Program-made: the position numbers and the translations under genes
Assembly (NCBI GenBank): GCA_973895155.1
Contig: OZ316894.1
Span: 1,566,457 to 1,630,456, forward strand
Length of the DNA: 64,000 bases
Source of the DNA: Marsupella aquatica
Taxonomy: Eukaryota; Plantae; Marchantiophyta
Direction: 5' to 3'
The notes under the pieces: model-generated
What the model saw: the letters and a program-made list of their open reading frames with translations, nothing else
What the model was told of the DNA's origin: nothing
Database searches by the model: none
Shown here: positions 6,933 to 64,000 of the stretch, piece by piece
How the letters are laid out: each line of letters begins with the position of its first letter
Numbering within the stretch: position 1 is the stretch's first letter

Positions 6933-8432
6933 TGTGGTGGACCTAGCCACCCAGTGCCCTCACCAATCCCGACACCCACGCCTAAGTGCCCCTGGTGCCC
7001 AAACACCTCCATGGAATACCTCGAGCAAGCACCTTAGTGTCCCTTGCACCACCAGCGGCCCCTCCCATACGAAGCCACGCTTATTCTCCAACACGACCGC
7101 TACTCAACGGTCCTCACAGTCTGCACAAGCAACCAAGCACCTCGGTAAGTAACCCTTCAGGATCTAGAACTCCCAAGTCTAGCATCCTAACTCAAGCTCA
7201 ACAGACATTGGTAAATAGGTCAGCGATAGGTCCTCCCGATGCCATAAGCCGGAACCAGAACCCACGCCCACTATTCGTCCAGAACAACTCCTTCCTTGGG
7301 CGTAGCCTGGGTTCCCCCTCGTACCTATCCATCACCAACTGACCGCCTTGACCCCATGACATGCTCATGGCCCAAATAGCGTAGCTTGTCCTAAAGCTTG
7401 TCCCAACACGTCTGGACCAGAATGGCCCTGACTCTAGCAACCCGTCTAGCAACCAACTTCCGATTTGCCCCACTGATGGTCTAGGGACGAAGCACCCTTG
7501 GAACTCAACCTCCATGCCTACTTGGTCTTTCCTCCCCAACGCAAGCTCCCTTGAGAGACTGAACTCAGCTTGGCTGCTATTTCGGCAGGATTTGGCAAAC
7601 GGGAGTGATAACATCTGCAAACCTTGAGAACCTATGGCGTCCCCAAACCCAGATGAGCTCAAGAGTATGTAGTCCTCCTTGAGAGATTTCCAACGCACCA
7701 AAAAAATCCTCCAACGGACTTCCCTTTGGGAAGTTATCATCATTTCTGTTTGACATTTTCCTTTAGTGTCGCAATCGTCGTGGCTCACGACTTTGGCTCG
7801 CCCTTAGCCCCCAGGGAGACACCACTCCCCTCATATATGCTTTTGGAGACCTGCCACCCCTGGACCAACTTTGGTCCCTAAACTTTTGGACCCCAACCCG
7901 GACCCTATCCCACATAACTGGGGGCGTCACCAACTGGCAACGCCCATAACTTTCTCGTTAGGCGTCCGCAAGCGGAGTGCCTTAGCCCGTTGTGATCGGG
8001 CCAACCCAATGCTCATGCCTAGGCCCTCAAATTTCATTGCCGCTTGGGGCCCCCAATCGGCCCTACTCGGATCGGGCCATAACTTGCGCCCCCAAGCGTC
8101 CGTTGCCCATGGCATCAACTCCATTGGCCTTGGGCCCAAGAGGGGCTCTCAATCAAGTCCTCAGAACTCAAAGTCCGTCCAGGGGTCCGAACGGTCGACC
8201 TTGAGCCCGACCCTTTTCCCCCTTGGCCCAACCAGCTTTCAATTAGTCTAAGTGCCTAGTGTGTGTCACCAGCTTGGCGCCTTGCCTTCGCTAGTGCCAC
8301 GTCTCATTGCCCATAAGTCTCCCCATGCTAAGTCCTCCCCGGATGGCCTATCCGGGCCTGGACCATAAGGGAGTTTGGCGTCAGAGTCAGCGACGCCGGA
8401 GCTAAGTGTTAAGGTAATCGAGTTCCACGACT
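6933..8432. mobile_element. 1.5-kb solo-LTR-like element, family A copy 1
   Basis: Flanked by 5-bp TSD AAGCC (6928-32 and 8433-37). Ends tgtggtgga...tccacgact are imperfect inverted repeats. A second copy has the same ends and its own TSD at 26954-55931. Confidence 0.85.
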
Positions 8433-9046
8433 AAGCCCCATCTCATTTGTGACAACAAAACCGGTTGTCAAGGGTGAGCATGGGAGAACACTTAATTGAG
8501 GTTGAAGGAGGCCTGGATATTTATGACTACGGTCTTCCCCCCAACAGAAAGCCCGGGGGAAGTTCAAGCTAATAGATAGTAAGATTGGCCTGGTGCTTTG
8601 AACAATAGTTTGCTTAGGACATTTTCCCACATTTAGAACCAAATACCAAAACAAAAACTGTGTTCACGACTTCTCTCATAGAAACCAATAAATTTAAGTG
8701 CTGGATCGAGTGTTGGATGCATCCTTCTTAAATTAATTGCATCTTTTTTTAAACTGTCCAAATCCATCTAGTGAGCCAAGATTTTCTGTTCGCTATAGAT
8801 TGATGATTGCTAATGATTTGGTGATCTGTACGATGAACCCAATCAATCGTCAAAATGATTATTATCCATGTATTCTCAACCATGTGAAATACCATAACAA
8901 AGAGATAGTCTATGGATATTGTGTTGCTGGTCGGAATAAATAAAAGTAAGAGGAATCAATCTGAGGAATCAATTGACTCCTAGACTGGATAGTTGTTTTA
9001 CAAGAGGCGTTCAGAGCGATTTGTACCTTGAAGGGAGTAACGAGAT

Positions 9047-15624: not shown

Positions 15625-18600
15625 GTCTTTAGAGTGAAGTCCTGGACTTCTTCCTGGGCAACTAACAACAAATCCGTGCTGAGAGATTTATCAATGGTAC
15701 CGCTAGGTTTACACCAAAAATGGTTGAAGTTCATTGATCCCAATGCTATTGGAAATTAATCTTGACAGATAATTTTTTTGAGAATTGATGGATGGCAAAT
15801 TGATTGATCATTGATTTCGTTCGCTTTTTACATGCGTAAAATTAGATACCTCTAGTCTCCAGAGAATGGGACTCCTATTATTTGTTGAGAAGTTAAGATT
15901 GAGAGATGGTGGTGGCTTGTATTGGAGGAAGATATTCTGCTTCCATTGTAATTTCATCAATTCATGTATTTACTACTGACAGCTTAATTCAAGATCTCAA
16001 GTTTTGTCTCCAAAGGCATGATTGTCGACAGTCTTATGTTCCCTGGATGATAAAGGTAAGCTGGCTTAGTTGCCAACGTTTTACTAACACTGAAGGCGTA
16101 ATTATGCTAAGTTGCACTAAACTGATAGAGAGAAAAGGTCAGGTCTGTGAATGATCTTTCAAGGCAACAAAAAAAAAGAGTCAGGTCTGTGAAATACATC
16201 TCTGGAAGGGAAGCCATTGCGAGGACAGTACCGATCAGGATTCCAAGTCAATCCCATTCTGGTTCCTAGCTTGACTGAGCTCATGGAAATGACACGTTCA
16301 CTTAGATTGTTTCAAGCTAAAATTAATGAGCCGCTGACTCCACATTGGCCCCACTAGTAGGGTCCGCAACGACCAAGTGCCCAAGCGCCCGAATTCCAGC
16401 AAGAGAGAAGACCAAATTAGCACAACGCTTGTGAGTAACCCCATCCTTGGGTGGTAATACATGTCCCTGCTCGATCATGACAATCATGGTACCCAGAGTC
16501 ACACAATAGGACAAATGGACTATGCGTCTGCAAGGATCTACAGTATATAGATTGTGCAGAATTTAATTCAGATTCGGATCACGTGCAAGACCATGGCCGT
16601 GCCTTTTGGTCAATCGATTGACTAGAACACATCTACCTCATGGTCGGATAGGATAATCTTTAGTTTTGGATTTATAAACCTGCGACCAAAGGCTGTAGAT
16701 TGATGGTGAAAGTTAGACGACGTCTAGCTTGAACAGGGAAGCAAGATACTGGCTTGGTGTTGACGAAGTACACTTCCTGTTACTCCTGCAGGCTCTAGAG
16801 TATCCATCCTATCGAAGGCCTACTTGATATCCATCCTGTAGAATGCCTAATCGATACGTGAGTTCACAGAGTAGAGGACAAACAAGGGAACGCGTTTAAG
16901 TAGGCGAAACGAGACCAGACGGAGAAAATAGAAGGTCGGAAGACAGCCATACCCCCAGTATAAGCTCCTCTTGAGGTAAGCTAATCGTCTCCTCAACTCA
17001 AACTCAACATTTCCGAGCTGCATTTTGGGTACGTTTGATAGGTTTTCGTGGTTGCCTGCAGTCAGTGCTTTCTCGGTAGATGCTTTGTTGAGGTATTTTG
17101 TTACCCACCTTTGCATGAATGGGAGGTGCTGAGATCTTCGGTTTTCAGATCTCCCGTGTCAGTGAAGGCCGCAAGTGCAATTTGACGGAATCTATGGATC
17201 GCGTAGGAAGTGTGAACTCTACTTAGTGGATTTCAGTGGAAACTTTGCCTTCTGTTTGGTCCCGGCCGGGGGATTGCATATTGCATGGAAGAATGTGAGG
17301 TTAATTTTAATTCTGCCCGGACAGATCACGCCGCACCGCAGGTGTTTCCTGGTATTCTGGGCATGCGAGGGTGAATTGGTGCTTGATGCACAAGCAGGCC
17401 CAAGGCTGCCTCCTCAATTTCAGCGCCTAACATTGGGGTCGACGTCGTCTGAGAATTAAATTCCACTGCTCGAACCTTCAGGTCTGGCGGAAGGGTTCGC
17501 CATCCAAACTTGTAAGTAATTTCAATACGTGCGCAGTAAGCTTACAGTCCCAGATTTCTAGCCGATCAGATCCTCCAGTTCTGATAGTCCTGCAATTGTC
17601 TAGCCTCCTATGGACTCAGATGTAGCTCTGCACTCTTCAACGGCTCAGCGATGATGAACAAAGAACCAGACTTTTCTTTCCCGACTCCATTTTCATAGAT
17701 ACGAAGAAAGATTTCTGGGTTTTGCCACCCCTCGAACAGGTCCTCAACACCCCGCGGCTACTAGTGTGAAGTTGAAGACTTTACTCTTGCACGTAACGCT
17801 AGATCTTGGGTTACTTTCTTGGTTGACAGGATATCTATGGATCGAAGAGAGTTCTCCGGGCTTTGCACTGCATCTTCCGCTGTTCACTAAGAAGCCGACT
17901 GACCTTCTCCGTTCTGATCTCCCTTCTACTCATACAGATAGATTCGAGCCTTTAAATTAATAAAATCTACCGAAGGTGAAAACTATCTCCAGGTTGCAAT
18001 CGAAATATATATCACCTCCTAACGTTTTTAAGCTCACAGGCTCCTGGAAACGGCTGGGCCCGATTAGTAAGTGTGCAGTGGGGAATCTTTCCTAACTAAC
18101 ATTGGGCATATCGTTCTATACTTAGATCTGGAAGTTCTTTATTTGATGTACACTCGATCCTACACTACTAGTGCCGCTCCAGCTTTCGCCTCATAGATAC
18201 ACCAGTGACATTTGTGTAAGAACGCCTCCGACCTTCGATACTGTTATGGTAATCGCTGACGGCTTTCTAATCCATGCCTGGTCGGACTGCAGATTCATGG
18301 CGGTGGTAAGTGAAGTCGTTGCAGTATGCAGTTCAATCCTCGGCATTGTGTCAAAGATCGACAATGTCAAGGAAGACTGGTTCACTGCATCAGCCGAGTA
18401 CCAAAGTGAAGCGGAAATCCTCCGCTCAAGGCTTATCTTCTACGAAGAGCAAGTCCACACCCATCAGCAACCAGTGGACAGTACTATGATGAAGACTTTG
18501 AAGAGAGCTGAATCAACATTGAGGAGGGCGGAAGCAAGATTGAATAACTTGGAGAAAAGCGTCGACAGCAACCAGTGCTGTTCGCAAATCTGGTGGTTGT

Positions 18601-21500
18601 ATGCAAAGGTGACCATGACCCTTTTCCCAGAGAAATTAGAGTGCACATTGAAGAAGGTGAACCAGGACCTTGATGGCATCCTTAAAATATTCAAGGACGA
18701 ACAGGAACTCTCTGGTCTTCTGCGAGAAGCAGACAAGCGTCGAGCCATCTCTACAGTTGTCCACAATAACGATAATAAATATGTGCCAATAGAAAAGTCA
18801 CAGTCTGCGGTCACTCAAGCCATCGAAGATTCTGATGGCCCTCCCATGATACTACTGCATGGTGGAGTAGGTAAAGGCAAATCCACTCTTGCCAGATACA
18901 TGTGTGAGCGCTACGGGCCATTTGGAGAAAAAAAAGGCGTCTTTGATCACGTGATTGTGGTGTCGTGTGCTAATAGTTCCATATCTGATCTTGCCACCAA
19001 GCAATATGAAATCTTGGAGCAGCTTTCTCCCACGAGTTTAACCGAGGAAAGCAGTTCAAGATCTGGAACTGGAAAATCTGGGGACAGTACGGGCTCAAAA
19101 TCTAGAATTGCAAGAGCTCTCCAAAATTTCTTCATTGGCAAGAAGATTCTGATGGTCTTAGACGACGTTTCAGATAAGGGGTTTCTGTATAAAATGTGGG
19201 AGACTGCCAGAGATGGTAAAGATGATAAGATACTCATCACTTCCCAATGGTCGAATATATGCGACGACTTTAAACATGACTCTTTGCTTATTACGATGGA
19301 AGATCCTACCAATGAGGAAGCGAGACAGATCCTTGCTTCTCTTGTGGGGCTGGAGAGTAATAGAATTCCTGAGAATATACAGGTTAGTTCCTCGAGCACA
19401 TTTCACCCTGGTCGTTTATTGAGGAGGTACTTGTTTTGTTAAGTTGTCTGGTGTACATGTTTCTAATGTCTACTAACTAGATTAGTCCTTAATTACTGTA
19501 TGTTTTATCTTTGTATACAGGGGATAGCAGATGAGATGATCAAAGCAACAGCGGGAAATCCGTTAGCTTTGGCATGTTTGGCAAGTAACTTTGCTTATGT
19601 AAAGGATGCTAAAGATAAAACAAAGAAGCGGGATTGGCAAGCTGCTTGGAGAGAGTTGTCTCAGTTGCTTGGCAATAAAGCGATGGCTATCGTGGCAGGG
19701 CAGAATAGTGAGACTGCCGCTAGAAGCCTGTGGGGTGCCATGAAGATTTGTATAGAATCCCTTCAAACAGAGGGTGCAAAACGCACACTCTTCTTGATGT
19801 ATGCATGTAAAGGAGTATCGGTTCCTGAAGAGGTCCTGCGGATTTTGTGTGCTGGTATGAAGATGTCAAATTCTACTTTCAAGAGGTCCATAGATGAATT
19901 GCGCATGCGAGACCTACTGAAACCTACAACGGATACATTAGCATGGAAGATGAATTTGGGGAACGGACCAAATGACGAAGTGTCTGCTGCGTGGTCCCTA
20001 CAGTCTTTAGTGAAGCTCTATATGGAACGGCATGTGGTAGGGAAACAGGAAATGAGGGCAGTGATTGGGGCATTGGTTGGTGATGACCAGCTTCCACCTG
20101 AGTCAAGCACCAAATACAAGGTACAGGATCATGAAACTGAAATATTGGAGATTGCAAGCGGGACTAAAACAGCAACTGTGGAGAGTGATGAGGTGAGGGT
20201 GACAATTGCTCTTTGTGCTCTGTACTTTGACCGCCACCATTCCGATCAAGGCGTGACTCAAGCCGTGGCCAAGGCTTTTAAAACATCCAATATTGAAGAC
20301 TCTGAAGACAACATTAATGATCTGAGGAGGAAGGCGATTGAGCCGTTGATATGGCTGCTCGACAAGCCTGAAGAGGACGACGAATGGGCGGAAATGGATA
20401 AATGCTGTGTGAGGAAGGTACTGTCCTGTTCCCCTTGACTATGTTCTTTCCTTTGCAACTTATGTGAGTCCTCATTGAAGTTAGAGAATCATTCGTGTAA
20501 TTCAAATACCCAAGCACGCACAGATCTAACAGTTCACATGTTTCGCATGACCGATTTATTCAAAGTTTACTAGCCGTACTTGAGCCATTCTTCGCAAGTG
20601 CACTTCTTCTGAAAATCCAAAGGACAGTACTCTGTTAACTATGCAAATTCAACTTCTCCCGTGAAATTACTGTTTGATAGCATGGGGCTGTTAGTATGGT
20701 AAACGCAAGTAATGAGTTATCTTGTAAGTCTATTGGACAGAATAACTATTTAGGTTCTATATCTGATAGTTTTTAAAATCAGAGGTCGAGTCTTAGAAGC
20801 ATGATTTCTTAGAAGAGCCATGTGTCTTGGTGAAGTTTGTTTGCCTTGTTTTTATTTGACATGATTTCTTGGAAATTGTAACAGTTGTGTCTGTATTAAA
20901 CGAAGCGCGGTTATTTGAAGTGATGTTTTGTCACTGAATTGTTTTGGACTTGTGAATCACTTTCTTTGCAGGTTGTTCTTGACTACATATGCAAGCGTCA
21001 GCTAGATAACAAGAACATCACTCATCTGTTGAAGTTGGCTGCTTGTCCTGCTGCACAATTGGCCACTCTCAAGGCCATCACTCACATTACAACCATAGAA
21101 GAAACGCCCCTGCTCAACGAAAACACAGTCCAGTTTTTACAAGCTGTAGTCGACCTTTTGAATGTGAAGGAGGGTTTCCACACCTCAGTTCAAGAGGCGG
21201 CCTCTACAGCACTGTGTGAAAGTTGTTGGAAGGCGGCGTACGACAAATCAGCAAACCTTGTTGCTAACATGTCACCTATTTTGGAGGTGTTTGTACACTC
21301 ACTTGCCATCCCCGTTTGGAAGTCGGATGCATTTGCCGAAAACGCAGCATTTGCCTTGAAGGGCTTAGCATTCTCGGAGGAAGAGGACATTGGACAATTA
21401 CTTGTGAAGAAACAGGACCTACTAGCTAGCCTTGTGCGTTGCATGTCTCAGCAATCCAAACCTAGTTTGCAAGCAGCCGCATCAGGGGCTTTGCGAAATC
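15625..21500 (+). repeat. Segmental/tandem duplication unit copy 1 (upstream region plus NLR-like gene); the paired copy runs from ~57608 to the window end
   Basis: Colinear near-identity starts at gtctttagagtgaagtcctgga (~15625 vs ~57609) and continues through the promoter, exons and introns. Confidence 0.9.
16323..16520 (-). mobile_element. Relic of an RLE-type (CRE-like) non-LTR retrotransposon endonuclease
   Basis: Translation RCANLVFSLAGIRALGHLVVADPT resembles the R.D.......RTL.DV.I.DPT PD-(D/E)xK core. The paralogous copy at 58325-59000 retains the downstream motifs. Confidence 0.55.
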
Positions 21501-23135
21501 TATCTTGTAGTGAAGATGACGCTGTCAAGCTGAGAATTGCCAATGAGGAAGGTGCTCTAGGTGGGGTACTGAGTTGGTTGTCAAACGATGACAACGGCGA
21601 AGTACAATTAGATTCAGCCTGCATTTTGGCAGAGCTAGCAGCTTCAGACGAAGAGGCTCTGAAGTTGAGAATTGCCAATGAGAAGGGTGCTCTGGTTGGC
21701 CTCGTGAGTTGCTTATCAAAGCACGACAACAGCGAGTTACAAACACTGGCAGCATGGGCTTTGAGAAACATAGCCAGCTCAAGTGATGAGTCTCTCAAGT
21801 TGAGAATCGCCAATGAAAAGGGGGCTCTGGTTGGTCTAGTGAATTGCTTGTCTCAACAATCCAAACCTGACTTGCAAGCAGCTGCATTGGGGGCTTTGCT
21901 AAATCTAGCTTGTAGTGACGATGAATCTGTTGAGCTGAGAATCGCCAAAGAGGAGGGTGCTTTGGCTGGTCTCGTGAATTGCTTGTCCCAATGTGAGAAC
22001 CCTGATGTGCAAGAAGACGCAGGCATAGTGATATTAAAGCTAGCTCGCACTCCAGATGGAAGGGCGATCCTTAAAGGAGCGGAAGGTCTGTTGCAGGGCC
22101 TTACAAGCTTAGTGGGAGGTGATGTGCGTGGGGATATTCGAAGTTCAGCAGTACAAGCGCTATTTCGAATAGACCCGACACTAGCTAAGGAAGTGGGGTT
22201 GCTCTCGGCACAACTAGATGGCGAAGCTTTAAGGTATGGTCGTGAATTTATAATTGAATTCGAGCACAACCTAGATTGTATAAAGATCGATGGAAAGCTA
22301 AGGGCAATATCTGTACATAGGTTATCTGTACAGAAGCTAGTTTCTCCTGCAGCAAGATACTGTACTACACTAACCATTCCGCCGAGTTAGCTGGCTTGAG
22401 AAGCGCAGGTTGGAAAGAGAATTAACCTGTACTTGATTCGAGGGTTCAACTAGCAGAAGAGTTCAGAATTTCCAGAATTTTGCAGTCGTTTTCCCTCATT
22501 TGTCTTGTGATCTGCCTCGGTTAGCAGGCAAGCGAATTTGTGGCAAGCCTTTTGACGATAAGATGTAGAAGTTCTCTTAGCATTGCAGAATCCAGCAGAT
22601 GAATTATTGTACCATACAGTTTGAGACGTCCAAGCCTAGTGGCATTGGATTGAGTAACATAGCTATACTTGAAATATGGTTGTAACCGAAGTTAAGAAGA
22701 AAGGGTGAACATGTTTACATCCAAGTGCACGTGATGTGTTTGCAGCGTATATTAACTAAGTTTCATATTTGTGATGGCAGTTATAGAATTTTTGTAAAAG
22801 CAAAATTTGGAGACTTTGAAGGGGCACTGGATGATGCCAACAAGGCAATCACGATGCCAGATGGCGACACGTTTTTTACCTTCCAAGAGAGGGGTGTCTT
22901 GAAACGAATGATGGAAGACCTTGAGGGAGCCCTGGCCGATTTGGACGAAGGATTAAAACGAAAAAGCAATGACTACGAGATGCTGAAGCATCGTGGATAT
23001 GTCAAGTTCTTGTTAAAAGACGTGGAAGGCGCTCGAGCAGATGCAGAATGGGCTCTATCGATCCAGTCCTCAAGGAATGACAGCGACTTCTACTTGGGAG
23101 CAACCCCTGTAGAATACTTGGGCTACAAGCTGTAG
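18297..23135 (+). CDS. NLR-like STAND protein, CC/4HB-NB-ARC-ARM repeats-TPR (~1199 aa), 4 coding exons
   Basis: Exons 18297-19382, 19521-20417, 20972-22233 and 22781-23135 are joined by phase-consistent GT-AG introns (3600 nt, no stops). Motifs: P-loop GGVGKGKST, kinase-2 ILMVLDDV, RNBS-B KILITSQ, GLPL-like GNPLAL, 45-aa ARM repeats, and ~3 TPRs (GDFEGALDDANKAI, RGVLKRMMEDLEGALADLDEGL, RGYVKFLLKDVEGARADAEWAL). Confidence 0.88.
21395..22050 (+). repeat. Coding tandem repeat, 135-bp (45-aa) armadillo units
   Basis: LRIANE(E/K)GAL starts recur at 21530, 21665, 21800 and 21935, an exact 135-nt period. Confidence 0.9.
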
Positions 23136-26790: not shown

Positions 26791-27556
26791 GTTATCATTG
26801 TTGTTTAAGTACTGATTGCTTGCCACATTGCTGTAGTTACACGGAGTATTCAAACGTCGTTAGATGCTTTCTTTAATAAGCGACCAAAGGACCTCTTTTA
26901 TTAGGTATCATCCAATCGTAGATGTCCTTCTAGAGTAGTGGAATGAGACAGCGAGTGGTGGACCTAGCCACCCAGCGCCCTCACCAATCCCAGCACTCAC
27001 ACCTAAGTGCCCCTGGTGCTCGAACGCCTCCACGGAATACCTCGAGCAAGCAACCTAGTGCCCTTTTGCACCGCCAGCGACCCCTCCCATATGAAGCCGC
27101 ACGTGCCCTCCTACACGACCGCTACTCAATGGTCCTCACTATCTGCACAAGCAACCAAGTACCTCGGTAAGTAACCCCTCAGGATCTAGTATTCGCCAAG
27201 TCTAGCATCCTAACTCAGCTCAACAGACATTGGTAAATAGGTCAACGATAGGTCCTCCCAATGCCATAAGCCAGAACCAGAACCCACGTCCACTGTTCAT
27301 CCAGAACAACTCCTTCCTTGGGCGCGGCCCGGGTTCCCCCTCGTACCTATCCATCACCAACTGACCGCCCTGACCCCAGGGCATGCTCATGGCCCAAATA
27401 GCGTAGCTTGTCCTAAAGCTTGTCCCAACACGCCGGGACCAGAATGACCTCGACTCTAGCAACCAACTCCTGGTTCGTCTCACTGATGATCTAGGGGCCG
27501 AACACTCTTGGGACTCAACCGCCACACCTACTTGGCCTTGCCTCCCCAACGCAAGC

Positions 27557-28091
27557 TGTCATGCCGAGGGACAGTGCCTCTTGTGCACATCGACATGTCC
27601 CTCGCATGCCCGCTAGGTATGTAGTTAGGGCTAGTGTACTACTTGAGTTAGTGTCATGTTCTTGTAGCGAGTCTGGGCCGTTCTTGAAGCAAAGGTGTTT
27701 GTTAGTGTGACGCCTGGACCCGGTCCTACTTAGGGCATGTTTTTCTTTGCCATTTTTCAGTTCTTCTTGAATCGCTGTTGATAGAGCTCAGACAGTGCTC
27801 GTCGGTTCCGTACACGGGATTCACATAGTGATTTGTTAGATGCTCCCGACCGATCTTGGCATCTCGCCGGTTTTTGATTTGATTTCAGTATGCTTGTTTC
27901 TCTTACGCCTTTTATATACAGAGGTTTACACCTCCACTACGTACATACCACCTCAGTTGCTTTTTCTTGGCACTTGTGAATGTGATTGGACTTTTTCTAT
28001 GCATGCTGGTTGCTAGCAGCTTGCACATATGCATTGCCGGTGACTTGTATGTTTTTGATACACTATGGCTACGATACTATATGTCACGACA
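27557..28091. mobile_element. 535-bp solo LTR nested in element A2
   Basis: TGTCATG...CACGACA ends with 4-bp TSD AAGC. The empty site gcaagctccc is visible in copy A1 at ~7541. Confidence 0.85.
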
Positions 28092-31000
28092 AAGCTCCCT
28101 TGGGAGATTGAACGTGGCTATTGACTTCGGCAGGATTTGGCAAGCGGGCGAGTTAACACCCGCAAATCCCAAGAATCCATGGTGCCCCTAGACCCAGCTG
28201 AGCTAAGCCCTCCTAGAGAGCTTTCCAACGCACCCAAGAAGTCAAGTTTGGCGGTTTCCCTTAGTGTCGCGACCGCCGCGGCTCACGACTTCGGCTCACC
28301 CTTAGCCCCCAGGGACACACCACTCCCCTCATATATGCTTATGGAGACCTGCCATCCCCGGACCAGCTTTGGTCCCTAAACATTTGGCCCCCAACCCAGA
28401 TCCTATCGCGCATAATGGGCGCGCCACCAACTGGCAACGCCCATAACTTTCTCGTTAGGCATCCACAAGTGGAGTGCCTTAGCCCGTTGTGATCGGGCCG
28501 ACCCAATGCTCATGCCTAGGCCCTCAGGTCTCATCGCCGCTCGGGGCCCCCTCGGGGGTCTCACTATATGGAGGACCCCCCCATCACCTGCGACGTTTTC
28601 ATGCCTAGACCCCCATACTTATTAAGTTGAAATTTTTTTCCTCCCTCTTTCTTTCTTCTAAGAGTCTAAAATCCAAATTGTATTGCCCCTATAATTTGTG
28701 AAGTAAAGTGTCACATATCAATAAAAATGCCTAGAAAGAAAAGATAAGTCTATGTCAGTACCTTGTGAAGTCGTATGTCAGACATGGCACGCCCTGCAAC
28801 AGTTCTTGCACCTTTGTCGACCTTAAACTTTGATCATTTCAATGCATTATTTATATTGTGTACCTAAAAGGTCATCCCAATATAAACCGTACGTGCATAA
28901 GTGGGATGGCCTTTAAGGTCACAACATAAATAATCCATTCCACCCATTGATCACCAATCCCATGCTCCATCCATACTCCATTTAAAACTTATGTTGAGAG
29001 ATGTAACATGTGACGGAGGGGAATTGAACCCCTAATTGAGAAAGGATCTCAAGTTGCCAATCCGTCACCCCCTATCCTATCCCACTACACCCACTAATAT
29101 TAACAAAATAAAACATATATACAGACTCTCAAAAACTAAACAGTAGCATGATATTCATACCATTGTTTGAAGATACTGATCCAAAGCACGTCTATCTATT
29201 GGATCCAACACATAGATACGATCCATAACCCCTTCTTTCATGGTTAAACTAACACTACCAATGATCATTTCAATATCCATCCATTTCAAATCAGTGGTAT
29301 CATATCTGAATTCACTTTTGCTCTTACCAATAGGACTATACCAATTTAACAACAGTTCACAAATGTTACCTGATTGCCCTGCGAGTGGAGTTGGCCTATC
29401 CATCAAATCAATTGGTGACCGACAATTGCCCCACCTACTGCCATACTTCTGTCTCATTTGGACAATCCGACCAAACCAAAAATATTTCTTACCTGCTGAG
29501 ATTGCCTCCACCACAACCTTATTCTTTCCTCCCTTTCTTTTTCCAGATCTAGTACTTGGAGCAGGATTATCATCAGACTCAAATGCAATTGCACAATCAG
29601 TGCCAACATCAACAAAACATGAGTTAGGATTGACTTCTTGCACTTTTCTCTTGCCAGTACTATAGTATAGCACTTGTTTCACCCTTGTCAGCCTATCTTT
29701 TGACAAATGCGGATTTCCTACCAATTGGCTTACCATAGTGGATTTGTAAATCACCTTGCCTTCATAAGTAACAGTAGGCACTACCTTGGTACGATTCTGC
29801 ACATTAGTTACAGCATGGACAACTGATCCAAACACATGCCGAACTTCATGACCTAATGTCTCAAGCTCATCTGAGGGGTCTACATCAAACTGTATATCAT
29901 CTCTGTGTACATCATCTGAATGCATCTCAGGAACAACAATGGGATCTGGTTCTGTTAACCATGCATCTATTCTATTCAGATCATCCTCAGGATCTTCCAA
30001 TTCATGAAAATCTCCAGTTGGGCGAGGACCTATGTCTGGTGGTTGGTGCTCTACTTGCTCCTTAGAATCATTGCAAACAATTGCTTCCTTCATAACCACC
30101 TCTAGTGGCCAGGTCTCACTTTCCACAACCCAAGGACATGTCCACCATCTCTTTCTAGCTGCTGGTAAGGAACTTCGTGGAGACATCTGCAATTGATGCA
30201 TAAGATCCTTAGCAGCAACAAAACCTTCTTTAAGGGCTGCAACCACTAATTCATTAGTCTCAATGAGAGAATAGTCAAGTAGATTTGGTGCTTCCTCCCC
30301 TTCCCCTATAGGATGAATCTTCCCCCATACATGATCTTGTTTCTTATGTGAACGACCTATCTTCAAGCCTTCTGGTCCATATTCTAGGGCAGCAAGCCGG
30401 TTCAGTCCAACAGCACTATCCAACAGAGAGCCAAAATCATAATTTCGCTCATGGCCACTCATGCCTCCTACCTTGCTGAAGAAAATCTCACAACAATCCG
30501 AACCTAGCAAGTGGAAGGGAACACCTAGATGTGGGAACTTATCTCGAAAGGCACAAATTAACAGCACAATGAAATGACATGACATGTTAACATCATGAAA
30601 AGCTTGAATAGACATCATGTCTTTCTCAGTGTGTGCTGCAAAGTTCCCACTGACCCACTGAATGGTCACCAAACCTCAACCACAATCTCCACAAACGTAG
30701 AAAGAATGAAACCTTGGATGCTAACACAAAACGGGACCTCAAATCATGAACTGGAGAAAAGAAAATATCTAAGTAATCTGCACAAATCTCCAAGTACAAC
30801 TGAGTTCCTAAACTTCATTCATGTCGTACATCTCTCCTCTCATACATATCTTTCAGACATTGCTGCACTCTTCTTGCTGCTATTCGTTGTGGACCTGCCC
30901 AATTCTGCCGGTCAGTCCTATTCACATCATCCCAAGCCATGCCATGTTCATGAATTGGATAATGATTGTAGACATTAGCTACATAAGATAAAGATGCATG

Positions 31001-31100
31001 TTGATCTCCTAGCACCAGTAAAGAAGACACTCTGTCTAAGGGGTTTATCATCTTTTTCCCATTATGAGGTTGGTCTTGGTCACCAAAGCCATACAAACCT

Positions 31101-34100
31101 TGTGAGATAAGGATGTTTATGAAGGAAGGGTTAACTAGCCATAAATTTTTGAATTTTTAAGTTTAAGATCTCAAATGAGGCTAAAGAGGGACCTGAAGAC
31201 TACTATGAAGTGTTATGAGACTCTCAAGCCCATCTGAGGTCAACCCGGATTGATATTGGAGAAGGAGGATCGACCCGGAACTTTTTGTTATAAACCTGGA
31301 ATGAGATATAAAGCTTATACCGAGACTCTACTCAACAACAGCTGTCCATTGCCAAAGTTTTTAAAACCATAAGTCAAACACAGGCACGACCACAGCAGAA
31401 TCCGGATATAAGGAAGGAGAGTCGATCCGGCCTCTCACACCTCTCAAAGCCGAACTTAGTAGGTTTTGAGTTCCCGAGCGCATTAGGCTGTTAAAGCAGT
31501 AGAGTGAGGAGGCTCTACCCTTTTGGTAGAGGATCTTGGGTCCGAATTATAGGACCAATCTTGAATTTCTTGATGAGAGCCTGGATATGAGGGTACTGAC
31601 TGATTCGTTGTGAGGGGAATGCCTACTCCGCCGCTGGGAGTGAAGGCAGGAAGTTTGAGATTCTAGCATACATCGGTGATGAGAACGAAGGCCAGGTCGA
31701 TCCGGACATCCACATTGCAGGCCCTTTTGAGTCTATCTTTGCCCCATGTTCGATGCACCTGAATTTTGATTGACGGGATCTTGATCAACGTTTCCAGAAG
31801 CGCTTGTCAGATGATCAGAAACGCCGTAGCCAGGTCGACCCGGACATTGCTACCATTGGTCGACACCAAAGCGATTGACCATTCTGAAGTCGCAGCATTG
31901 TAGAGCTCGCCGACGAGGAGGCAGGCCATTTATTGGGAATCCATTTTTTGCTTCGATAAGTCCTATGGAGCAAGGGACGGATCCAGCCGGAATGTCCACT
32001 TCTCGCATCTCTAAGGGGCATTCAACCTCAACATCACCTGCACCTACTCCGGTTAAAGCCCCTGTGAGATGATCGAAGAGAAAGGAGGTCCCTATTGCCA
32101 TGAAAATTCTGAGGCCAGCTATTCCGGACAGTGAAGCTGAGAAGGTCAAACTGAGGGAGTCTTTGCTCAGGATGGGCTGTGAGTCTCTGATGGAGCTACC
32201 TTGGAGTTATCAGAGCGAAGATATGATCAGAGAGATCCGATCTAAGGAGTATCCGGCTGAGTTTAAGGATAGCTCCAGAGGCCGACCTGAGCGATGGACT
32301 CAGATGATGATTGCAAGAGCTTTTGTATTGGAAGATGAAGGAGAAGGTCCAGTGGGAAGAGCTGTCAACCTAATCCTTCCTTACTTCAAAGGAGCCATCA
32401 ACAGTAAGGATGGGTTCAATGTTTCTAAGTGTTTGGATCCTGATTTGAGACGAGTCTTCAGCTTTCTGCTACCTCTGCTGTACCCTGAGAAGCCAAGAAG
32501 AGTTACTGTTGGAGTTGGCTCTACCATTGTTGCTGCTTACAAGGGAGAAAGAAAAGTCAACTGGGCTAAGCTTATCTTTGATTTGATAAGGAAGTTGGTA
32601 CAGAACCTATCCAACAAGAGTCCTACTCCCCTCTCCTGCTACCTGGTACATCTATATAGCTTTGAAGGAGTTTTGTTCAGAGAGGAGAAGAAATTACTAT
32701 TGGCCAAGTACAACTTCATCAAGTATGGAGAGACAGATCCAGATATCACCCAGGCCACCTCTGATGACAGTGAAGATGAGGAACCAGCAGAGACAAATCC
32801 TCGAAAGACCCGGTCTGCTGCCCGGAACCTCGACCCGGACTTTTCCGACCCGGCCTTCGTCGACCCGGCTGAATGTCCGGATGCACCCGGCCATGCCTCC
32901 CAAGACACCCTAGCTGATTTCCAGATCATCTCAGACACGTTCCAGAAGGTGAAGAGGAAGACCACTGTGATGGAGAAGGTCATCACCGACATTTCGCAGA
33001 AGCTAGGAGTGAAACTAGGGCAGATTCTTGAGAAGATCTCCACCATGAGTGATGCCACAGATAAGAAGAAGTTGGAGAAGGAGAATGAGTTCCTCAAGAA
33101 GAAGGTATCTGAACTCAAACAGCAGTTGGAAAGGAGTAAGAAGAAGAATGAGCTTGAGCATACTCTCCAACTTAGTATCACTCAATCTTTGGATCTGATT
33201 GAGCCTTTGACTAAGATAGCTTCTCTGGATCTTCTTAAGGCCCAAATTTATGATGAGTATTTGGCCAAGAACACCACACCCATCCTTTTCTCCAAGATTA
33301 ACCATTTAGTGGTAGATGTGAGTACCAAGGTGGATGATGCACTTACACGCCTCTCAAAGACCTGTGAAGCCTTAAGGGAGATGAGTGACTTGACTACTGA
33401 GGAGCTATTAGCTGATACTGAGATTCCTCCCTTTACTACCAGATCTTTCTCTCCTAGTCCTCATGAAGGAGTCTATTCCACTGGCCCCTCATCACCCCTC
33501 AACCCTCCTGGTTTCCCCACTCCCAGTACACACTTCCACTCCCATTCTTACACCTATTCTCATGACCCAAGTGCCCATCAGGAGAACATGGATATTGACC
33601 CGTCCATCCCTTTTACCACTGGCCAGCAAGGAGTTTTCCTTCGACCAGAACCCCTTGCTATGGCTAACCCCGAGGAGGTTCCTTCCCAAAAGCTAGGACC
33701 AGAATAGAGTTATATTTAGAGAGTTAGAGCCACATTAGTTTAGACTTAGAAATATCTATATAGATTAGTATATGAGTAAGTAGACTCCAGTATTTTGTTG
33801 ATGTATCCATTGGAGACTCTACTCCATTTTTGACTAGGATAGTTCACTTTTATTTACATATTTCTTTAGACTTGGGTTTTGAAGAGGCATGTCTTTTCAT
33901 AATCTCCACTTTTAGTACAAAAGGAGGAGAACCCAAAGTCAACTAAGAGAGAGAAAACATACATTTTGATTTCCTCATTGCCTTTGAAGGAATCTATGTC
34001 TTTCTTCCCTTCTTTTTACCATGGTTGAGTAAAAGGAAGAAGTTTAGCAACCCTTGAGTTGTTGTGAAATGTTCAATGAATGCTAGAGTGTGCCTATAAT

Positions 34101-34695
34101 GATATTGGAAGATCAATGAGATTTGTGACCAATACATTTGGAAGATTCACCAAAGAGGAAATTGACATTTGCACAAAACTCAACCAAGCAATCTTAAGGA
34201 TTGTAGGAGAAGTAAGTCGATTCGAGTATCCTAGTACCGTCCTCAAGAGGACCAGAAAAGTGTCCCGGGTTGATTTACATTCATATCTTCTAAATTCAAG
34301 AGATGGAGAAGAGTTGCTACGAGAAATCAAAAAGCATAGAAAATGTTGATTTCTGAATCTTAAATTAGGCCATAATCCTTATTGAAGGAGTGGTGATGGT
34401 CAGAAATTCAATTCCCTTGCACTTTGAAAACTCCTATCTACTCTCTCTCTAGTTTCAATCTTTGTTAATTCTAGTCTTTATTATTGCACTGTGAATCCTA
34501 AGGATTACCCACTTGAGTTTGTGGTTAAACACTTATGTTAAGGAGATCATTAGAAATCTCTCCAACCTAAGAATGTTGGTGTAAACTTCTTAAATTTTGT
34601 TAATTAGGTCTTTTCGATCTTATCCACTCCTAACCGGAACGAAATCGAGTAGTTAAGGAATAAATAGTCATTTATCTCTTTATCACCTTGCTACA
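31101..34695. mobile_element. 3.6-kb TG..CA solo-LTR-like insert carrying an ORF
   Basis: TGTGAG...CTACA ends with 5-bp TSD AACCT. Removing it restores the transposase frame (...PNGGL/YGFGDQDQPH). Confidence 0.85.
32100..33707 (+). CDS. LTR-borne protein of unknown function (535 aa; globular N-domain plus coiled coil)
   Basis: Long ORF that extends upstream in the same frame (31875-32072) past one TGA. Shares the pattern G(F/Y)...C...L.F....L...P....NWA..F with the 39381-41240 ORF. Confidence 0.6.
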   Translation: MKILRPAIPDSEAEKVKLRESLLRMGCESLMELPWSYQSEDMIREIRSKEYPAEFKDSSRGRPERWTQMMIARAFVLEDEGEGPVGRAVNLILPYFKGAINSKDGFNVSKCLDPDLRRVFSFLLPLLYPEKPRRVTVGVGSTIVAAYKGERKVNWAKLIFDLIRKLVQNLSNKSPTPLSCYLVHLYSFEGVLFREEKKLLLAKYNFIKYGETDPDITQATSDDSEDEEPAETNPRKTRSAARNLDPDFSDPAFVDPAECPDAPGHASQDTLADFQIISDTFQKVKRKTTVMEKVITDISQKLGVKLGQILEKISTMSDATDKKKLEKENEFLKKKVSELKQQLERSKKKNELEHTLQLSITQSLDLIEPLTKIASLDLLKAQIYDEYLAKNTTPILFSKINHLVVDVSTKVDDALTRLSKTCEALREMSDLTTEELLADTEIPPFTTRSFSPSPHEGVYSTGPSSPLNPPGFPTPSTHFHSHSYTYSHDPSAHQENMDIDPSIPFTTGQQGVFLRPEPLAMANPEEVPSQKLGPE

Positions 34696-37600
34696 AACCT
34701 CCATTTGGTAGAATTGAAACAGAGTATGTCCACCCTTCCCACCCAACTCCGTACCTTGGGTATGATCCATTCTACCCTCTGTAATCTTCCAGCATCAGCT
34801 TTCGGCGACGTGCATCACCATCACTAGCATGTCCAAGCAAAGGGCCTACCATAGCTCTACAATATTCATCCCAAAAAGCCTTTAACTGGACCCAATGCTC
34901 TCGTACCCAAGAAGCTGTGAACTTATTACAAGTTGGAAGTGCACACACAGCCAATTTAGGTAAGGACTCATGCAGAGGATTCACAATCACAACTCGGGCA
35001 TACATGCACTTGGGGCGTTGTTCAAATGTACTTACAATTTTATCATACCCCTCATCACCTTCACCAACTAGAATTTCCAAACCATAGGAGCATACATGCT
35101 GCTCTGAAGGGCCACAAAAACCAATGAGAGTATCATACTTTGCCTCCCACCTGAAACACAGACATGCAATTTTTCAATATCACAGCAATTCCAGCCAAGT
35201 GCTACTTGTAAAGTCATTAAAAAAACAATTGGAAAAATGTCCAGTTCCAATTACCTAGGGCGTTCTTTGATCCTTGTTTCATCCTCAGCAAAGATAACAG
35301 GCACATCCCCCTCAATGCCCAATGAGTGCTTTGCAGCAGACAACACTCTAGCAATCTCCTGAAAGGTTTCCTTCCGTAACCCGGTTCGAAAAGGTGTGAG
35401 TTTTGCTCTATCACGTTTTAGGGTCACAAGGCTAGGGGCTGTCAAGTTTTGTGCAAAACAATGAGCAACTTGACGGCCCCCAAATTGGAACATAGCCTGA
35501 GCAATAGCTCGAGTCCTATTACTGTAACGATTACCTTTTGGCTTCCTGCTTAAATTGCGAGCTACATCCTTCAAGAAATCCCACAAACCCTCCTTACCAC
35601 CAAATGCACCATTCCTGTGTCCATTCAAAATACTCCTAAGAAACAATCTCAAATCCATCCTGTCTGTTGCAACTCCTAACAACTCCTCTAGTTTTCGTTT
35701 CCTGGTGCTCAAGGCACATACTTTCTGAGCCTGCAAAGCTAACAACCAACGCTCTTTTCGTCGCACACAGTTCAGGTTGTGCACTTGATCTCTTAACTCT
35801 GTGTTGGTCAAATAATCCAAACGTATACCACCAGCAGTGGTTCGGCTCCCTCTGTGGACTACTGCTTCCGCTTCCCTGTGCACCTATCCACGAAAATCAT
35901 CTTCTAGTGTTATAGAATCACATTCACTACAAGTTAGATTTTCAAATCCTCCTCCATTCTGTGATAACCTCAAGCAATCCTTGTGTCTAAAACAGCCTGC
36001 TATACTCACAACACTCTCTCTACTTGGATGGAAAACATCCAAGCAACAACTTGGCTCACAATGCCATGTAATTCCCCCAGACTGATCATCTAAAATGCCA
36101 GAAATATCATAAGATATACCCTTCCATAACAGTCGAGGCACACCTCTCTCTACCCATAATCCCCAGCAAAGCAAACTCAGACCAAGATCAACAGATTCAC
36201 ACACACCTGAACCTGAACCTGAACTGCTGCCTGTCCGGGACCCATCATCTTTAAAGAACTTCAAAATCCCGCTCTGACCAGGATGTAGGTCCCTAGAATC
36301 AGTCCTCTTTGGCCTGCCCCTCTTCCCAGACCTCAAGGCAAGCATTTTTGTGTCATGCCTAGTCTCCAATGCATCCAAGTGATCTCGACTCACTAAGTGT
36401 GTCCTCAAATTGGGCTCCAAGGTAAGCTTCTTGGGGCACAAGTCAATGTGAAGCATTCCACAGATAGTACAGCGAACCTTAAACAGGAAAGACCTGTTTA
36501 CATACTCAGGAGTACTGGGATCAGGAACAATAGAGAATAGTTTGCCATCATCCCCAAGCTCAGCATTCAATCGCTGAACTATCTCAACACCTACTTTGAT
36601 GGCGTCTGCATGATCATATTCTGGCTTCTCAGAGCTGTCTGCTACCTGAACCAAAGTAGAAGGATTAATGCCCCTTCTCCGACAATAGTTATCCTTGTGC
36701 TTATTGAAGACCAAGTGTTTGGTCTTAAAATTACTAAAGCAATTGGAGATGGATTTAGGGTTCTGAGAGTTGTCTGCATTGCCATAAGTTTCCCTACATT
36801 CAAGACACTCCAGATGCCCTCGAACATCTGTCCCCTCATCCCAGGTACAAATTCTCCAATTGTGATCACCATAACCCTTCTTATGCACCCATTTCTCTAA
36901 CCTCATCCACTCATCTTTCCATAGCTTTGATGGGTCATCTCCCATCAATTGTGACTCAAAAGAAGCCCTTACAGGGGAGGGTGCTAGTGCTGTTGGCCCC
37001 AGTTGTGGTGTCCCAGTATTTGGACCCAATGATGCAGGAGTGCAAGGATGACAGGGTACTGGTGGGATCCTCCCACCATCTCCAAGTTCTTGTTGTACAA
37101 CAATAACTCTTCCATCCAGCTCAGACAGATCAATTAATTTCTCATGTACAAGTTTCACTCGACCAGGAAGTCTCTCATCCCAAAAATCAAAGTCAAAGTC
37201 TAGAGTAGAGGCAATACGAGCCCTAAAATCATGTAGGGTGTGTCCTTCTTTGAATGACAAAACACAGATTGGTAAATCAGCCTTGTCATCCCCAACTTTG
37301 CGTATTAATTTAACAGAGTTGGGTTTAGGGGCTGCCATTGCAATACAAATCTAGAACATGCATAGCACCATTGCTTTTGGAGTCGATAACAGAAAGACCT
37401 GCACAAATACATTTGAAATACACACAAGGGAAACACATTAGGATCTTCAAGAGATGTAATGACAACATACACATTCTCATGTAATGTACATAATGTCAGC
37501 ATACATTTAACAATAGAAGTGCTAATAGGCCAAAACACTTTATAATGCAATCCATCATACATGCAAATGTATTCAGTGAAAATCATGATATACCGTTAAA

Positions 37601-59000: not shown

Positions 59001-59347
59001 GACCAGAGTCATGAGAATAGGACAAATGGACTGAGTAAATTCCACTGATCTACGGTACATTGACAAATGGACTATGCGTGAATTCCAGTGCAAGGATCTA
59101 AAGTAGATTATGCACAATTTAATTCAGATTCAGATCACGTGGCCGTGCCTTTTCGTCCATCAATTGATTAGAACACATCTGTACATCTACCGCATGGTCG
59201 GATAGGAGAATCTTTAGTTTTGGATTTATGAACTTTTTGTAGGTCCGCCTGCGACCAAAGTCTGCAGATTGATAGTGAAAATTAGACGAGGTCTAGCTTG
59301 AACAGGGAAGCAAGATACTGGCCTGGTGTTGACGAAGTACACTTCCT

Positions 59348-60806: not shown

Positions 60807-63800
60807 ATGGCGGTGGTAAGTGAAGTCGTGGCAGTATGCAGTTCAATCCTCGACATTGTGTCAAAGATCGACAATGTCATGGAAGACTGGTTCACTCCAT
60901 CAGCCGAGTACCAAAGTGAAGCGGAAATCCTCCGCTCAAGGCTTATCTCCTACGAGGAGAAGGTCCGCATTCATCAGCAACCAGTGGACAGTACTATGAT
61001 GAAGACTTTGAAGAGAGCCGAATCAACACTAAAGAAGGCGGAAGCAAGATTGAACAGCTTGGAGGAAAGCGTCGACAGGAACCAGTGCTGTTCGCAAATC
61101 TGGTGGTTGTATGCAAAGGTGACCATGACCCTTTTCCCAGAGAAATTAGAGTGCACATTGAAGAAGGTGAACCAGGACCTTGATGGCATCCCCAAAATAC
61201 TCAAGGCCGAACAGGAACTCTCTGGTCTACTGCGAGAAGAAGGCAAGAGTCGAGCCATCTCTACAGTTGTCCACAATAACGATAATAAATATGTGCCAAT
61301 TGAAAAGTCACAGTCTGCGGCCATTGAAGCCATTGAAAATTCGGACGGCCCTCCCATGATACTACTGCATGGTGGAGTAGGTAAAGGCAAGTCTACTCTT
61401 GCCAGATACATGTGTGAGCGCTACGGGCCATTTGGAGAAAAACAAGGCCTCTTTGATCACGTGATTGTGGTGTCGTGTGCTAATAGTTCCATATCTGATC
61501 TTGCCACCAAGCAATATGAAATATTGGAGCAGCTTTCTCCCACGAGTTTAACAGAGGAAAGCAGTTCAAAATCTGGAACTGGAAAATCTGGGGAGAGTAT
61601 GGGCTCAAAATCTAGAATCGCAAGAGCTCTCCAAAATTTCTTCATTGGCAAGAAGATTCTGATGGTCTTAGACGACGTTTCAGATAAGGGGTTTCTGTAC
61701 AAAATTTGGGAGGCTGCCAAAGTTGGTAAAGATGATAAGATCCTCATCACATCCCAATGGTCCAACATATGCGACAACTTTAAACAGGACTCTTTGCTTA
61801 TTACGATGGAAGATCCTACCAAAGAGGAAGCGAGACAGATCCTTGCTTCTCTTGTGGGGCTGGAGAGTAATAGAATTCCTGAGAATATACAGGTTAGTTC
61901 CTCGAGCACATTTCATCCTGGTCGTTTATTGAGGAGGTACTTGTTTTGTTAAGTTGTCTGCTCTACATCTTTCTAATTTCTACTAACTAGATTTAGTCCT
62001 TACTGTATGTTTTATCTTTGTATACAGGAGATAGCAGATGACATGATCAAAAAAACAGCGGGAAATCCATTAGCTTTGGCGTGTTTGGCAACTAACTTTG
62101 CTTTTGCAAAGCATGCTAAAGATAAAACAAAGAGGAGGGATTGGCAAGAGGCTTGGAGAGAGTTATCTCAGTTGCTAGGCAATGAAGCGATGGCTATCGT
62201 GGCAGGGCAGAATAGTGAGAGTGCCGCTAGAAGCCTGTGGGGTGCCCTGAAGATTTGTATAGAATCTCTTCAAACAGAAGGTGCAAAACGCACACTCTTC
62301 TTGATGTATGCATGTAAAGGAGAATCGGTTCCTGAAGAGGTCCTGCGGATTTTGTGTGCTGGTATGAAGATGTCAAATTCTACTTTCAAGAGGTCCATAG
62401 ATGAATTGCGCATGCGAGACCTACTGAAACCTACAACGGATACATTAGCATGGAAGATGAATTTGGGCAACGGACCAAATGACGAAGTTTCTCCTGCATG
62501 GTCCCTACAGTCTTTAGTGAAGCTCTATATGGAACGGCATGTGGTAGGGAAACAAGAAATGAGGGCAGTGATTGGGGCATTGGTTGGTGATGACCAGTTT
62601 CCACCTGAGTCAAGCACCAAATACAAGGTACACGACTATGAAACCGAAATATTGGAGATTGCAAGCGGGACTGAAACAGCAACCGCGGAGAGTGATGAGG
62701 TGAGAGTGACAATTGCTCTCTGTGCTCTGTACTTTGACCGCCGCCATACCGATCAAGGCGTGACTCAAGCCGTGGCTAAGGCTTCCAAAACATCCAATAT
62801 TGAAGACTCTGAAAACAACATTAATGATCTGAGGAGGAAGGCGATTGAGCCGTTGATATGGCTGCTCGACAAGCCTGAAGAGGACAACAAATGGACGGAA
62901 TCGGATAAATGCCGTGTGAGGAAGGTACTGTCCTGTCCCCCTTGACTATGTTCTTGCCTTTGCAACTTATGTGAGTCCTCATTGAAGTTAGAGAATCATT
63001 CGTATAATTCAAATACTTGGGCACACACAGATCTAACGGTTCACATGTTTTCGCATGACCGATTCAGTCAAAGTTTACTAGCCGTACTTTGAGCCATTCT
63101 TCGCAAGTTGGCACTTCTTTTGAAAATCCAAAGGACAGTTCTCTGTTAACTATGCAAATTCAACTTCTCCCGTGAAATACTGTTTGATAGCACGTGGCTG
63201 TATGGTAAACGCAAGTAATGAGTTATCTTGTAAGTCTATTGGACAGAATAACTATTTAGGTTCTGTATGTGATAGTTCTTAAAATCAGAGCTCGAGTCTT
63301 AGAAGCAAGATTTCTTAGAAGAGCCATGTGTCTTGGTGAAATTTGTTTGCGTTGTTTCTATTTTGACATGATTTCTTGGAAATCGTAACAGTTCTGTGTA
63401 TATTAAAGTTATTTGAAGTGATGTTTTGTCACTGAATTGTTTTGGACTTGTGAATTACTTTCTTTGCAGGTTGTTCTTGAGTACATATGCAATCGCCAGC
63501 TGGATAACGAGAACATCACTTACCTGTTGAAGTTGGCCGCTGGTCCTGCTGTACAGCTGGCCACTCTCAAGGCTATCGCTCACATTACATCAATAGAAGA
63601 AACACCCCTGCTTAAAGAAAAAACAGTCGAGTTTTTACAAGCTGTAGTCGACCTTTTGAATTTGAAGGAGGGTTTCGACACTACAGTTCAAGAGGCTGCC
63701 TCTGTAGCACTGCGTGAAAGTTGTTGGAAGGCCGCGTACGACAAATCAGCAACCCTTGTTGCTAACATGTCGCCTGTTCTGGACGTGTTGGTACACTCAC

Positions 63801-64000
63801 TTGCTATTCCCGCTTGGAAGTCAGAGGCATTTGCCGAAAACGCAGCACATGCTTTGAAGGGCTTAGCATTCTCGGAGGACGAGGACATTCGACAAATAAT
63901 TGTGAACAAACAGGACCTACTAGCTAGTCTTGTGAATTGCTTGTCTCAGCAATCCAGGCCTAGTTTGCAAATAGCCGCGGCAGGGGCTTTGCGAAATCTA
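60807..64000 (+). CDS. NLR-like CC-NB-ARC-ARM(-TPR) paralog 2, truncated by the window end
   Basis: Exons 60807-61892, 62028-62924 and 63470->64000 have the same splice sites and motifs as paralog 1, with an open frame throughout. Confidence 0.88.

Follow-up and report, generated by a model that had tools for sequence, protein, structure and literature searches.

What kind of protein is encoded at 18297..23135 (+ strand) of a 64,000-nucleotide stretch of the genome of the liverwort Marsupella aquatica (assembly GCA_973895155.1, contig OZ316894.1, positions 1,566,457 to 1,630,456; hereafter the window, whose coordinates we use throughout), where a plant-type NB-ARC domain is followed by armadillo (ARM) and tetratricopeptide (TPR) repeats instead of leucine-rich repeats (LRRs)? 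An earlier note on this DNA had proposed a new class of immune receptor in tandem expansion, with a possibly pore-forming N-terminal domain. Our analysis supports a non-LRR, NLR-like STAND protein of an expanded family which, judged from its sequence, is a likely liverwort member of the CC-NB-ARM (RLS1-type) class (CC, coiled coil). This class is known and under-studied, and its ARM plus TPR form is already tabulated for Marchantia.

Results

The gene is confirmed as real and intact, with a splicing pattern supported by homologous gene models. Four exons (18297-19382, 19521-20417, 20972-22233 and 22781-23135) join into 3600 nt, encoding 1199 amino acids (aa) and a stop codon (23133-23135) in an open reading frame (ORF) with zero internal stops, and the three introns all have GT-AG ends. 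All three exon junctions are colinear with the gene models P0001 and P0002 of Calypogeia fissa, with identical final residues, bearing out the intact 1199-aa spliced ORF that the earlier note described. Exon 1 (aa 1-362) encodes the N-terminal helical bundle, the nucleotide-binding domain (NBD) and the start of helical domain 1 (HD1); exon 2 (aa 363-661) completes HD1 (GNPLAL) and adds the winged-helix domain (WHD) and a helical linker peculiar to the family. In exon 3 (aa 662-1082), degenerate helical repeats precede five 45-aa ARM units, which are followed by a cap, and exon 4 (aa 1083-1199) supplies a short TPR domain with a C-terminal motif that is conserved. The introns appear to be conserved in relatives, since the short matches in an exon-2 search (10 of 10 examined, from 25) start near the exon-2 start and lose similarity at the exon-2 end, the pattern that ORF calling on unspliced DNA would produce if the introns were shared. 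The exon-3 frame also stays open for about 52 codons into intron 3 (22234-22390), as far as an in-frame stop at 22390, so that retention of this intron would yield a TPR-less isoform.

Pfam recognises NB-ARC in exon 1 (E=4.8e-13, 49.4 bits against a cut-off of 23.5) and found nothing in exon 2. The NBD (18774..19304, aa 160-336) contains the P-loop GGVGKGKST, the Walker B motif LDDV and the RNBS-B motif ITSQ. The "full NB-ARC motif set" reported earlier stands for the P-loop, Walker B, the GLPL-like GNPLAL and RNBS-D, all of which are present, but not at two positions: the MHD position, placed within the winged helix by alignment and by a structure model of the homolog P0024, reads LQS (19998-20006), and RNBS-B reads TSQ rather than TT/SR, exchanging the sensor-1 arginine for glutamine. 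Loss of the MHD aspartate and the sensor-1 arginine is family-wide. Across 29 family rows the MHD position keeps its histidine in 18 and its aspartate in none, and the sensor-1 arginine survives in a single row. With these residues altered, the switch is likely to be tuned differently from that of ZAR1.

In structural comparisons the modelled NTPase fold is nearest to plant NLRs and Apaf-1/CED-4. Foldseek placed ZAR1 first for the exon-1 model (E=4.8e-9), with Sr35 and NRC structures also leading, and VIA-align gave NRC2 as its best match (Z 17.2, root-mean-square deviation 2.7 over 180 residues), with a wheat G10 NLR and Apaf-1 also among the top matches. This fold and the expanded family set the gene apart from the housekeeping single-copy STANDs, a grouping that the earlier note had named as evidence against its own reading. 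An Atlas search with exon 2 returned unnamed and bacterial STAND winged-helix clusters (0.90-0.96); we take these matches to reflect a generic STAND HD1-WHD likeness rather than gene transfer.

The proposed order of ARM and then TPR repeats in place of LRRs is upheld by Pfam, which finds Arm in exon 3 (E=1.9e-16, 59.9 bits against a cut-off of 20.6), TPR_1 in exon 4 (E=6.4e-6, 26.2 bits, slightly below the 27.8 cut-off) and no LRR family on any exon at E<=0.05; the TPR part comprises only about 118 aa. Designed armadillo proteins are the top PDB matches of the repeat region, in which five ARM units (21395..22069, aa 803-1027) recur with a period of 135 nt and pairwise aa identities of 18-62% (mean 43%). 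In a full-length model of P0024 (predicted local distance difference test score, pLDDT, 78.6) the helical solenoid is continuous and is accompanied by TPR helices, and the chain ends in a beta-hairpin, which is the predicted form of the conserved C-terminal motif of exon 4. Exon 4 is 61-70% identical to the C-termini of P0001, P0002 and P0005, a further C. fissa model. The TPR tail and its terminal motif occur in 15 of the 29 family rows, Riccia proteins included, and are missing from the other 14, several of them partial models; the ARM plus TPR combination is thus probably old within liverworts and often absent. A TPR clamp of the Hsp70/Hsp90-binding kind was set aside on a comparison, by eye, of the residue positions that define such a clamp.

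The N-terminal domain (18297..18737, aa 1-147) is predicted to form four helices (2-22, 33-56, 62-91 and 97-147) ahead of the P-loop NTPase fold, in an AlphaFold model of exon 1 based on a 25-row alignment (mean pLDDT 77; block pLDDT 62-89 over aa 1-130). Where the earlier note had described an amphipathic helical bundle, the helices are predicted as claimed and the amphipathicity of the first is moderate: among 1178 segments of 21 residues, helix 1 ranks 5th by mean hydrophobicity and 194th by hydrophobic moment. Helix 1 stays hydrophobic in all of the 10 proteins with a bundle that were compared, which come from the window and from Calypogeia, Marchantia and Riccia. An Atlas feature search gave for this domain bundle clusters of MLKL_N, RPW8, MCAfunc and Rx_N at 0.82-0.87, which we treat as leads only. 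Pore formation is possibly within the reach of this domain, as the hydrophobic, moderately amphipathic helix 1 and the sub-threshold Atlas leads would suggest.

Searches with individual exons place the gene in a liverwort family. Five C. fissa proteins, 45-68% identical, were found with exon 1, and 40 representatives with exon 2, of which 14 were scanned (12 with NB-ARC, one ARM-only and one spurious); in a profile search, NB-ARC family proteins account for 16 of the 19 matches. P0041, an exon-2 search match with bacterial-type Ig repeats, was rejected as spurious and excluded, together with the ARM-only P0030 and short exon-sized matches, before the 29-row motif table and a 30-row tree were made. 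Named family members all come from liverworts (C. fissa, Marchantia paleacea, Riccia fluitans and R. sorocarpa), which by itself points to a leafy liverwort as the likely host. Of the matched family proteins, 24 are labelled C. fissa, some of which may be allelic or homoeologous. Scanning metagenomes with exon 1 gave 102 pattern matches and no confirmed relative. In the 30-row tree of NB-ARC plus linker, for which the tool warns of long branches and whose rows include neither RLS1 nor an outgroup, the gene and a second copy in the window fall into an eight-row clade (100/100) made up otherwise of C. fissa alone.

Two proteins outside this NB-ARC family share parts of the architecture. Mp4g04270 of Marchantia polymorpha (P0087/P0069) has no NB-ARC but has ARM repeats and ends in the TPR tail and terminal motif of the family; it goes unnamed in the literature searched, and may have donated the sensor module, derive from it or act as its decoy. 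P0059 from Ceratodon purpureus, with a helical N-terminus, a kinase, a long TPR array and another kinase, is a tandem-kinase protein with related TPRs.

P0023 (Mapa_000187), which matches exon 2 at E=1.4e-15, connects the family to a published one. In comparing Pfam families we took PF11865 to be the former DUF3385. P0023 has all 11 of the 11 Pfam families given for the CC-NB-ARM clade member Marpal_utg000002g0001911 (PMC12512272), and is therefore very likely the same protein; the family of the window gene would then probably belong to this clade. CC-NB-ARMs are named there as a conserved land-plant cluster in an NB-ARC tree, and Table S3 gives the clade 62 rows (116-177). Besides rice RLS1 these cover lycophytes and ferns, several species of flowering plants and 16 genes from Marchantia, six of which (Mp5g08960, Mp5g10840, Mp5g21860 and three from M. 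paleacea) are annotated (NBARC)(ARM)(TPR) (PMC12512272). With this clade published, the claim of a new immune-receptor class does not survive. RLS1 (LOC_Os02g10900) is described as a CC-NB-ARC protein of 1040 aa that has three ARM motifs, first reported for chloroplast degradation in senescence; a gain-of-function allele leads to defence and to cell death resembling the hypersensitive response, which depends on high light and on a partner, RMC, that RLS1 requires and binds (PMC10030324). NB-ARM proteins are also noted in PMC8559963, PMC7145615, PMC9825502 and PMC10586772. No paper devoted to liverwort NB-ARC-ARM-TPR genes appeared in the literature searched, which largely lies outside subscription journals.

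The second copy (60807..64000, + strand; exons 60807-61892, 62028-62924 and 63470->64000) runs past the window end, with 838 codons free of stops and 88.7% aa identity to the first. The duplicated block is 17569..21502 (+ strand), 93% identical to 60076-64000, and pieces further upstream at 15625-17327 match 57609-60059. The duplication is under purifying selection, with a ratio of nonsynonymous to synonymous divergence (dN/dS) between copies of 0.44 overall (Fisher p=1.8e-6), so that both copies are likely to be functional. By region, dN/dS is lowest in the NBD (0.29), followed by the linker (0.40), HD1-WHD (0.45) and the bundle (0.47, not significant alone, p=0.09), and it peaks where the repeat region begins (0.60, with 81% identity). 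Tandem expansion, as first proposed, holds insofar as there are two copies and an expanded family; "tandem" is loose for copies about 42.5 kb apart with transposon-like ORFs and DNA between them. Exon dS (0.12; 18297-21502 versus 60807-64000) is roughly double the divergence seen in introns and upstream DNA (4-5% of aligned columns).

The C. fissa relatives vary in both their repeats and their N-termini. ARM repeats were detected in 20 of 22 scanned proteins, numbering 4-15; the five repeats of P0002 are 82-93% identical (mean 88%) and the ten of P0001 64-84% (mean 74%). Eleven proteins yielded 12 clusters of similar repeats, in which varying positions make up 134/371 of the helix-3 groove, against 40/265 of the polar convex face of helix 2, 70/318 in loops and 72/742 at buried sites, these counts not being independent. 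The repeat register came from alignment to designed armadillo proteins, and positions 29, 36, 40 and 41 were likewise taken as groove positions. Glu30, Trp33 and the concave Asn are described as binding positions in armadillo repeats (PMC4756613). Repeat identity above 85% over at least 100 aa, the threshold given in PMC4986451, is reached by P0002 and by neither P0001 (74%) nor the window gene, which lacks the near-identical, groove-varying repeat signature of these relatives. P0001, with a helical bundle, and P0002, with an alpha/beta-hydrolase, have NB-ARC domains that are 80% identical and different N-termini, and P0005 represents a second, separate hydrolase-bearing lineage; all three are automatic gene models that could be fusions of neighbouring genes. 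The hydrolases of P0002 and P0005 are 44% identical, with nucleophile elbows GHC and GHS, respectively. A hydrolase is listed in none of the 62 published CC-NB-ARM rows, in their readable cells (two being incomplete; PMC12512272). An upstream hydrolase exon for the window gene was also sought and rejected: tblastn of the P0002 and P0005 hydrolase parts against the window gave no match at E<=1e-3. The fungal-like repeat and N-terminus traits of C. fissa are undescribed in the literature searched, and the word Calypogeia is absent among the literature matches listed.

Between the two copies lie several ORFs on the - strand. Those at 29155-30675, 35251-35883 and 35884-37350 have no Pfam matches, and by motif likeness they resemble pieces of one P-element/THAP9-type transposase gene (29155-37350), interrupted by a + strand ORF (32073-33707) with a weak Transposase_32 match (E=0.2). 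At 39381-41579, within an island of high GC content (53-56%), an ORF of 732 aa that is Pro-rich and of coiled-coil character has only weak coiled-coil Pfam matches and is likely a transposon accessory ORF. En/Spm (CACTA)-like transposon remnants follow on the same strand at 44759-47568, with Transposase_24 at 46264-46917 (E=1.6e-4). A dispersed repeat (6934-8436, 26955-28551 and 55549-55935; 77-88% identical) has pieces ahead of each NLR-like copy as well as in the interval separating the copies; it may be a small mobile element or a marker of the duplication unit.

Discussion

The window gene shares with the CC-NB-ARM/RLS1 class a helical N-terminus, an NB-ARC domain, C-terminal ARM repeats and the absence of LRRs. 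It differs from RLS1, described with three ARM motifs, no TPR and an MHDV-like motif (PMC10030324), in its LQS at the MHD position and its TPR tail. The modelled NB-ARC fold and four-helix N-terminus with a hydrophobic first helix resemble those of canonical CC-NLRs (ZAR1, Sr35 and NRC2), from which the gene departs in having no LRR, no Rx_N or RPW8 Pfam match, and degenerate MHD and sensor-1 positions. Compared by eye, its N-terminus is not MADA-like, nor is it MAEPL-like as in MAEPL-type CC-NLRs of non-flowering plants; passages of the preprint treating MAEPL-type CC domains leave armadillo unmentioned (bioRxiv 10.1101/2022.10.19.512840). TIR-NB-ARC-TPR (TNP) proteins also combine a plant NB-ARC with a TPR C-terminus and no LRR. 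They form a separate cluster in the published NB-ARC tree (PMC12512272), and unlike them the window gene has no TIR (no Pfam match and an all-helical N-terminus) and, after its NB-ARC, has ARM repeats ahead of a far shorter TPR part.

It is a little more probable than not, and the most probable of the readings we weighed, that this CC-NB-ARC-ARM-TPR protein works as an intracellular STAND-type immune switch. By analogy with STAND and NLR proteins, the ARM solenoid would hold the NB-ARC closed at rest, until a protein or peptide ligand bound the concave helix-3 groove of the array and released it. Nucleotide exchange and oligomerisation would then cluster the four-helix N-termini, and their hydrophobic first helices could act on a membrane, leading to defence or cell death as NLR structures and RLS1 suggest. 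Since about half of the relatives have no TPR tail, it likely serves as a cap that can be dispensed with or as a second surface for interactions. The architecture, the folds, the liverwort expansion, purifying selection, groove variation, the cell death caused by the gain-of-function RLS1 allele and the published clade together incline us modestly towards this switch.

Several observations weigh against it. The gene is known here from genomic DNA and homology. Pfam gave no CC, RPW8 or HeLo match for the N-terminal domain, the Atlas leads for it all score below 0.9, and in the exon-1 fold search, where the bundle was folded only together with the NTPase, matches were dominated by the latter. 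No named flowering-plant, fern or moss protein occurs among the NB-ARC family matches, and the link to RLS1 therefore rests on the published tree. The groove pattern is followed by all eight larger clusters and reversed in all four two-repeat clusters, in position classes fixed after the repeats had been inspected. Repeats within the window gene share just 43% identity on average (maximum 62%), and its one close repeat pair varies less in the groove than elsewhere. No region has a dN/dS above 1 between the two copies, and no positive selection is apparent.

The dependence of RLS1 on RMC (PMC10030324) also counts against an autonomous switch, and gives substance to a less probable but serious alternative, in which the protein is a sensor or scaffold whose bundle leaves membranes alone and which signals through a partner, as RLS1 does, or through a helper NLR. 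The absence of the MHD aspartate from all 29 family rows and of the sensor-1 arginine from all but one would fit such a protein, and the two relatives with a hydrolase instead of a bundle indicate that the chassis is not tied to a pore. An intact P-loop and Walker B, however, weigh against this alternative, as do the hydrophobic helix 1 kept in every bundle-bearing protein examined and the conservation of the bundle between copies, the latter short of significance when taken alone. That the ligand is endogenous, making the protein a regulator of stress, senescence or development rather than a pathogen sensor, we consider unlikely: the senescence and chloroplast role of RLS1, its light-dependent cell death (PMC10030324) and the lack of positive selection between the copies would be in keeping with this, but the growth in copy number, together with the differing repeat numbers of relatives and the concentration of their variation in the groove, suits non-self recognition better than a fixed endogenous ligand.

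Least probable of all, and in our view improbable, is that the TPR exon lies outside the main transcript, intron 3 being read through to the stop at 22390 to give a plain CC-NB-ARC-ARM protein, or that the gene is silent. The open frame into intron 3 allows for this, the splicing of the window gene has been deduced through homology, and the tail is missing from 14 of 29 family rows, several of which are partial models. Exon 4, however, is intact, in phase and clearly related to the C-termini of P0001, P0002 and P0005, and the same ARM-TPR order recurs in Riccia and Marchantia models.

Fungal NLRs offer a parallel for the wider family, with their highly conserved WD, ANK or TPR repeats and swappable HeLo-like or SesB-like N-termini (PMC4986451). 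The C. fissa relatives resemble them in that their repeats differ in number, can be nearly identical and vary on the concave face, and in having either a bundle or a hydrolase at the N-terminus; they differ in having a plant NB-ARC and ARM repeats (armadillo does not occur in the main text of PMC4986451), and the window repeats are only distantly alike. We regard the likeness as an analogy and not as membership.

The CC-NB-ARM class is expanded in liverworts, and the window gene is one more member of a catalogued class. Within it, rice RLS1 is the sole protein with functional data, and no ARM ligand is named, in the literature examined. Since Mp5g08960, Mp5g10840 and Mp5g21860 of Marchantia polymorpha share the exact domain order, function is directly testable in that species. 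We tentatively suggest, with rather less conviction than we attach to the immune switch itself, that liverworts may run a second, LRR-free repertoire built like that of fungal NLRs, in which one NB-ARC chassis would carry ARM arrays that expand, contract, homogenise and vary at a peptide-binding groove, an optional TPR cap, and N-termini that switch between a four-helix bundle acting on membranes and an alpha/beta-hydrolase; the two window copies would be a young pair of this repertoire. If this is true, plant immunity would have in ARM arrays a natural and programmable sensor of peptides. If both groove variation and effector swapping hold, plants would have converged on a fungal mode of receptor diversification, and these proteins could provide a modular sensor scaffold for receptor engineering.

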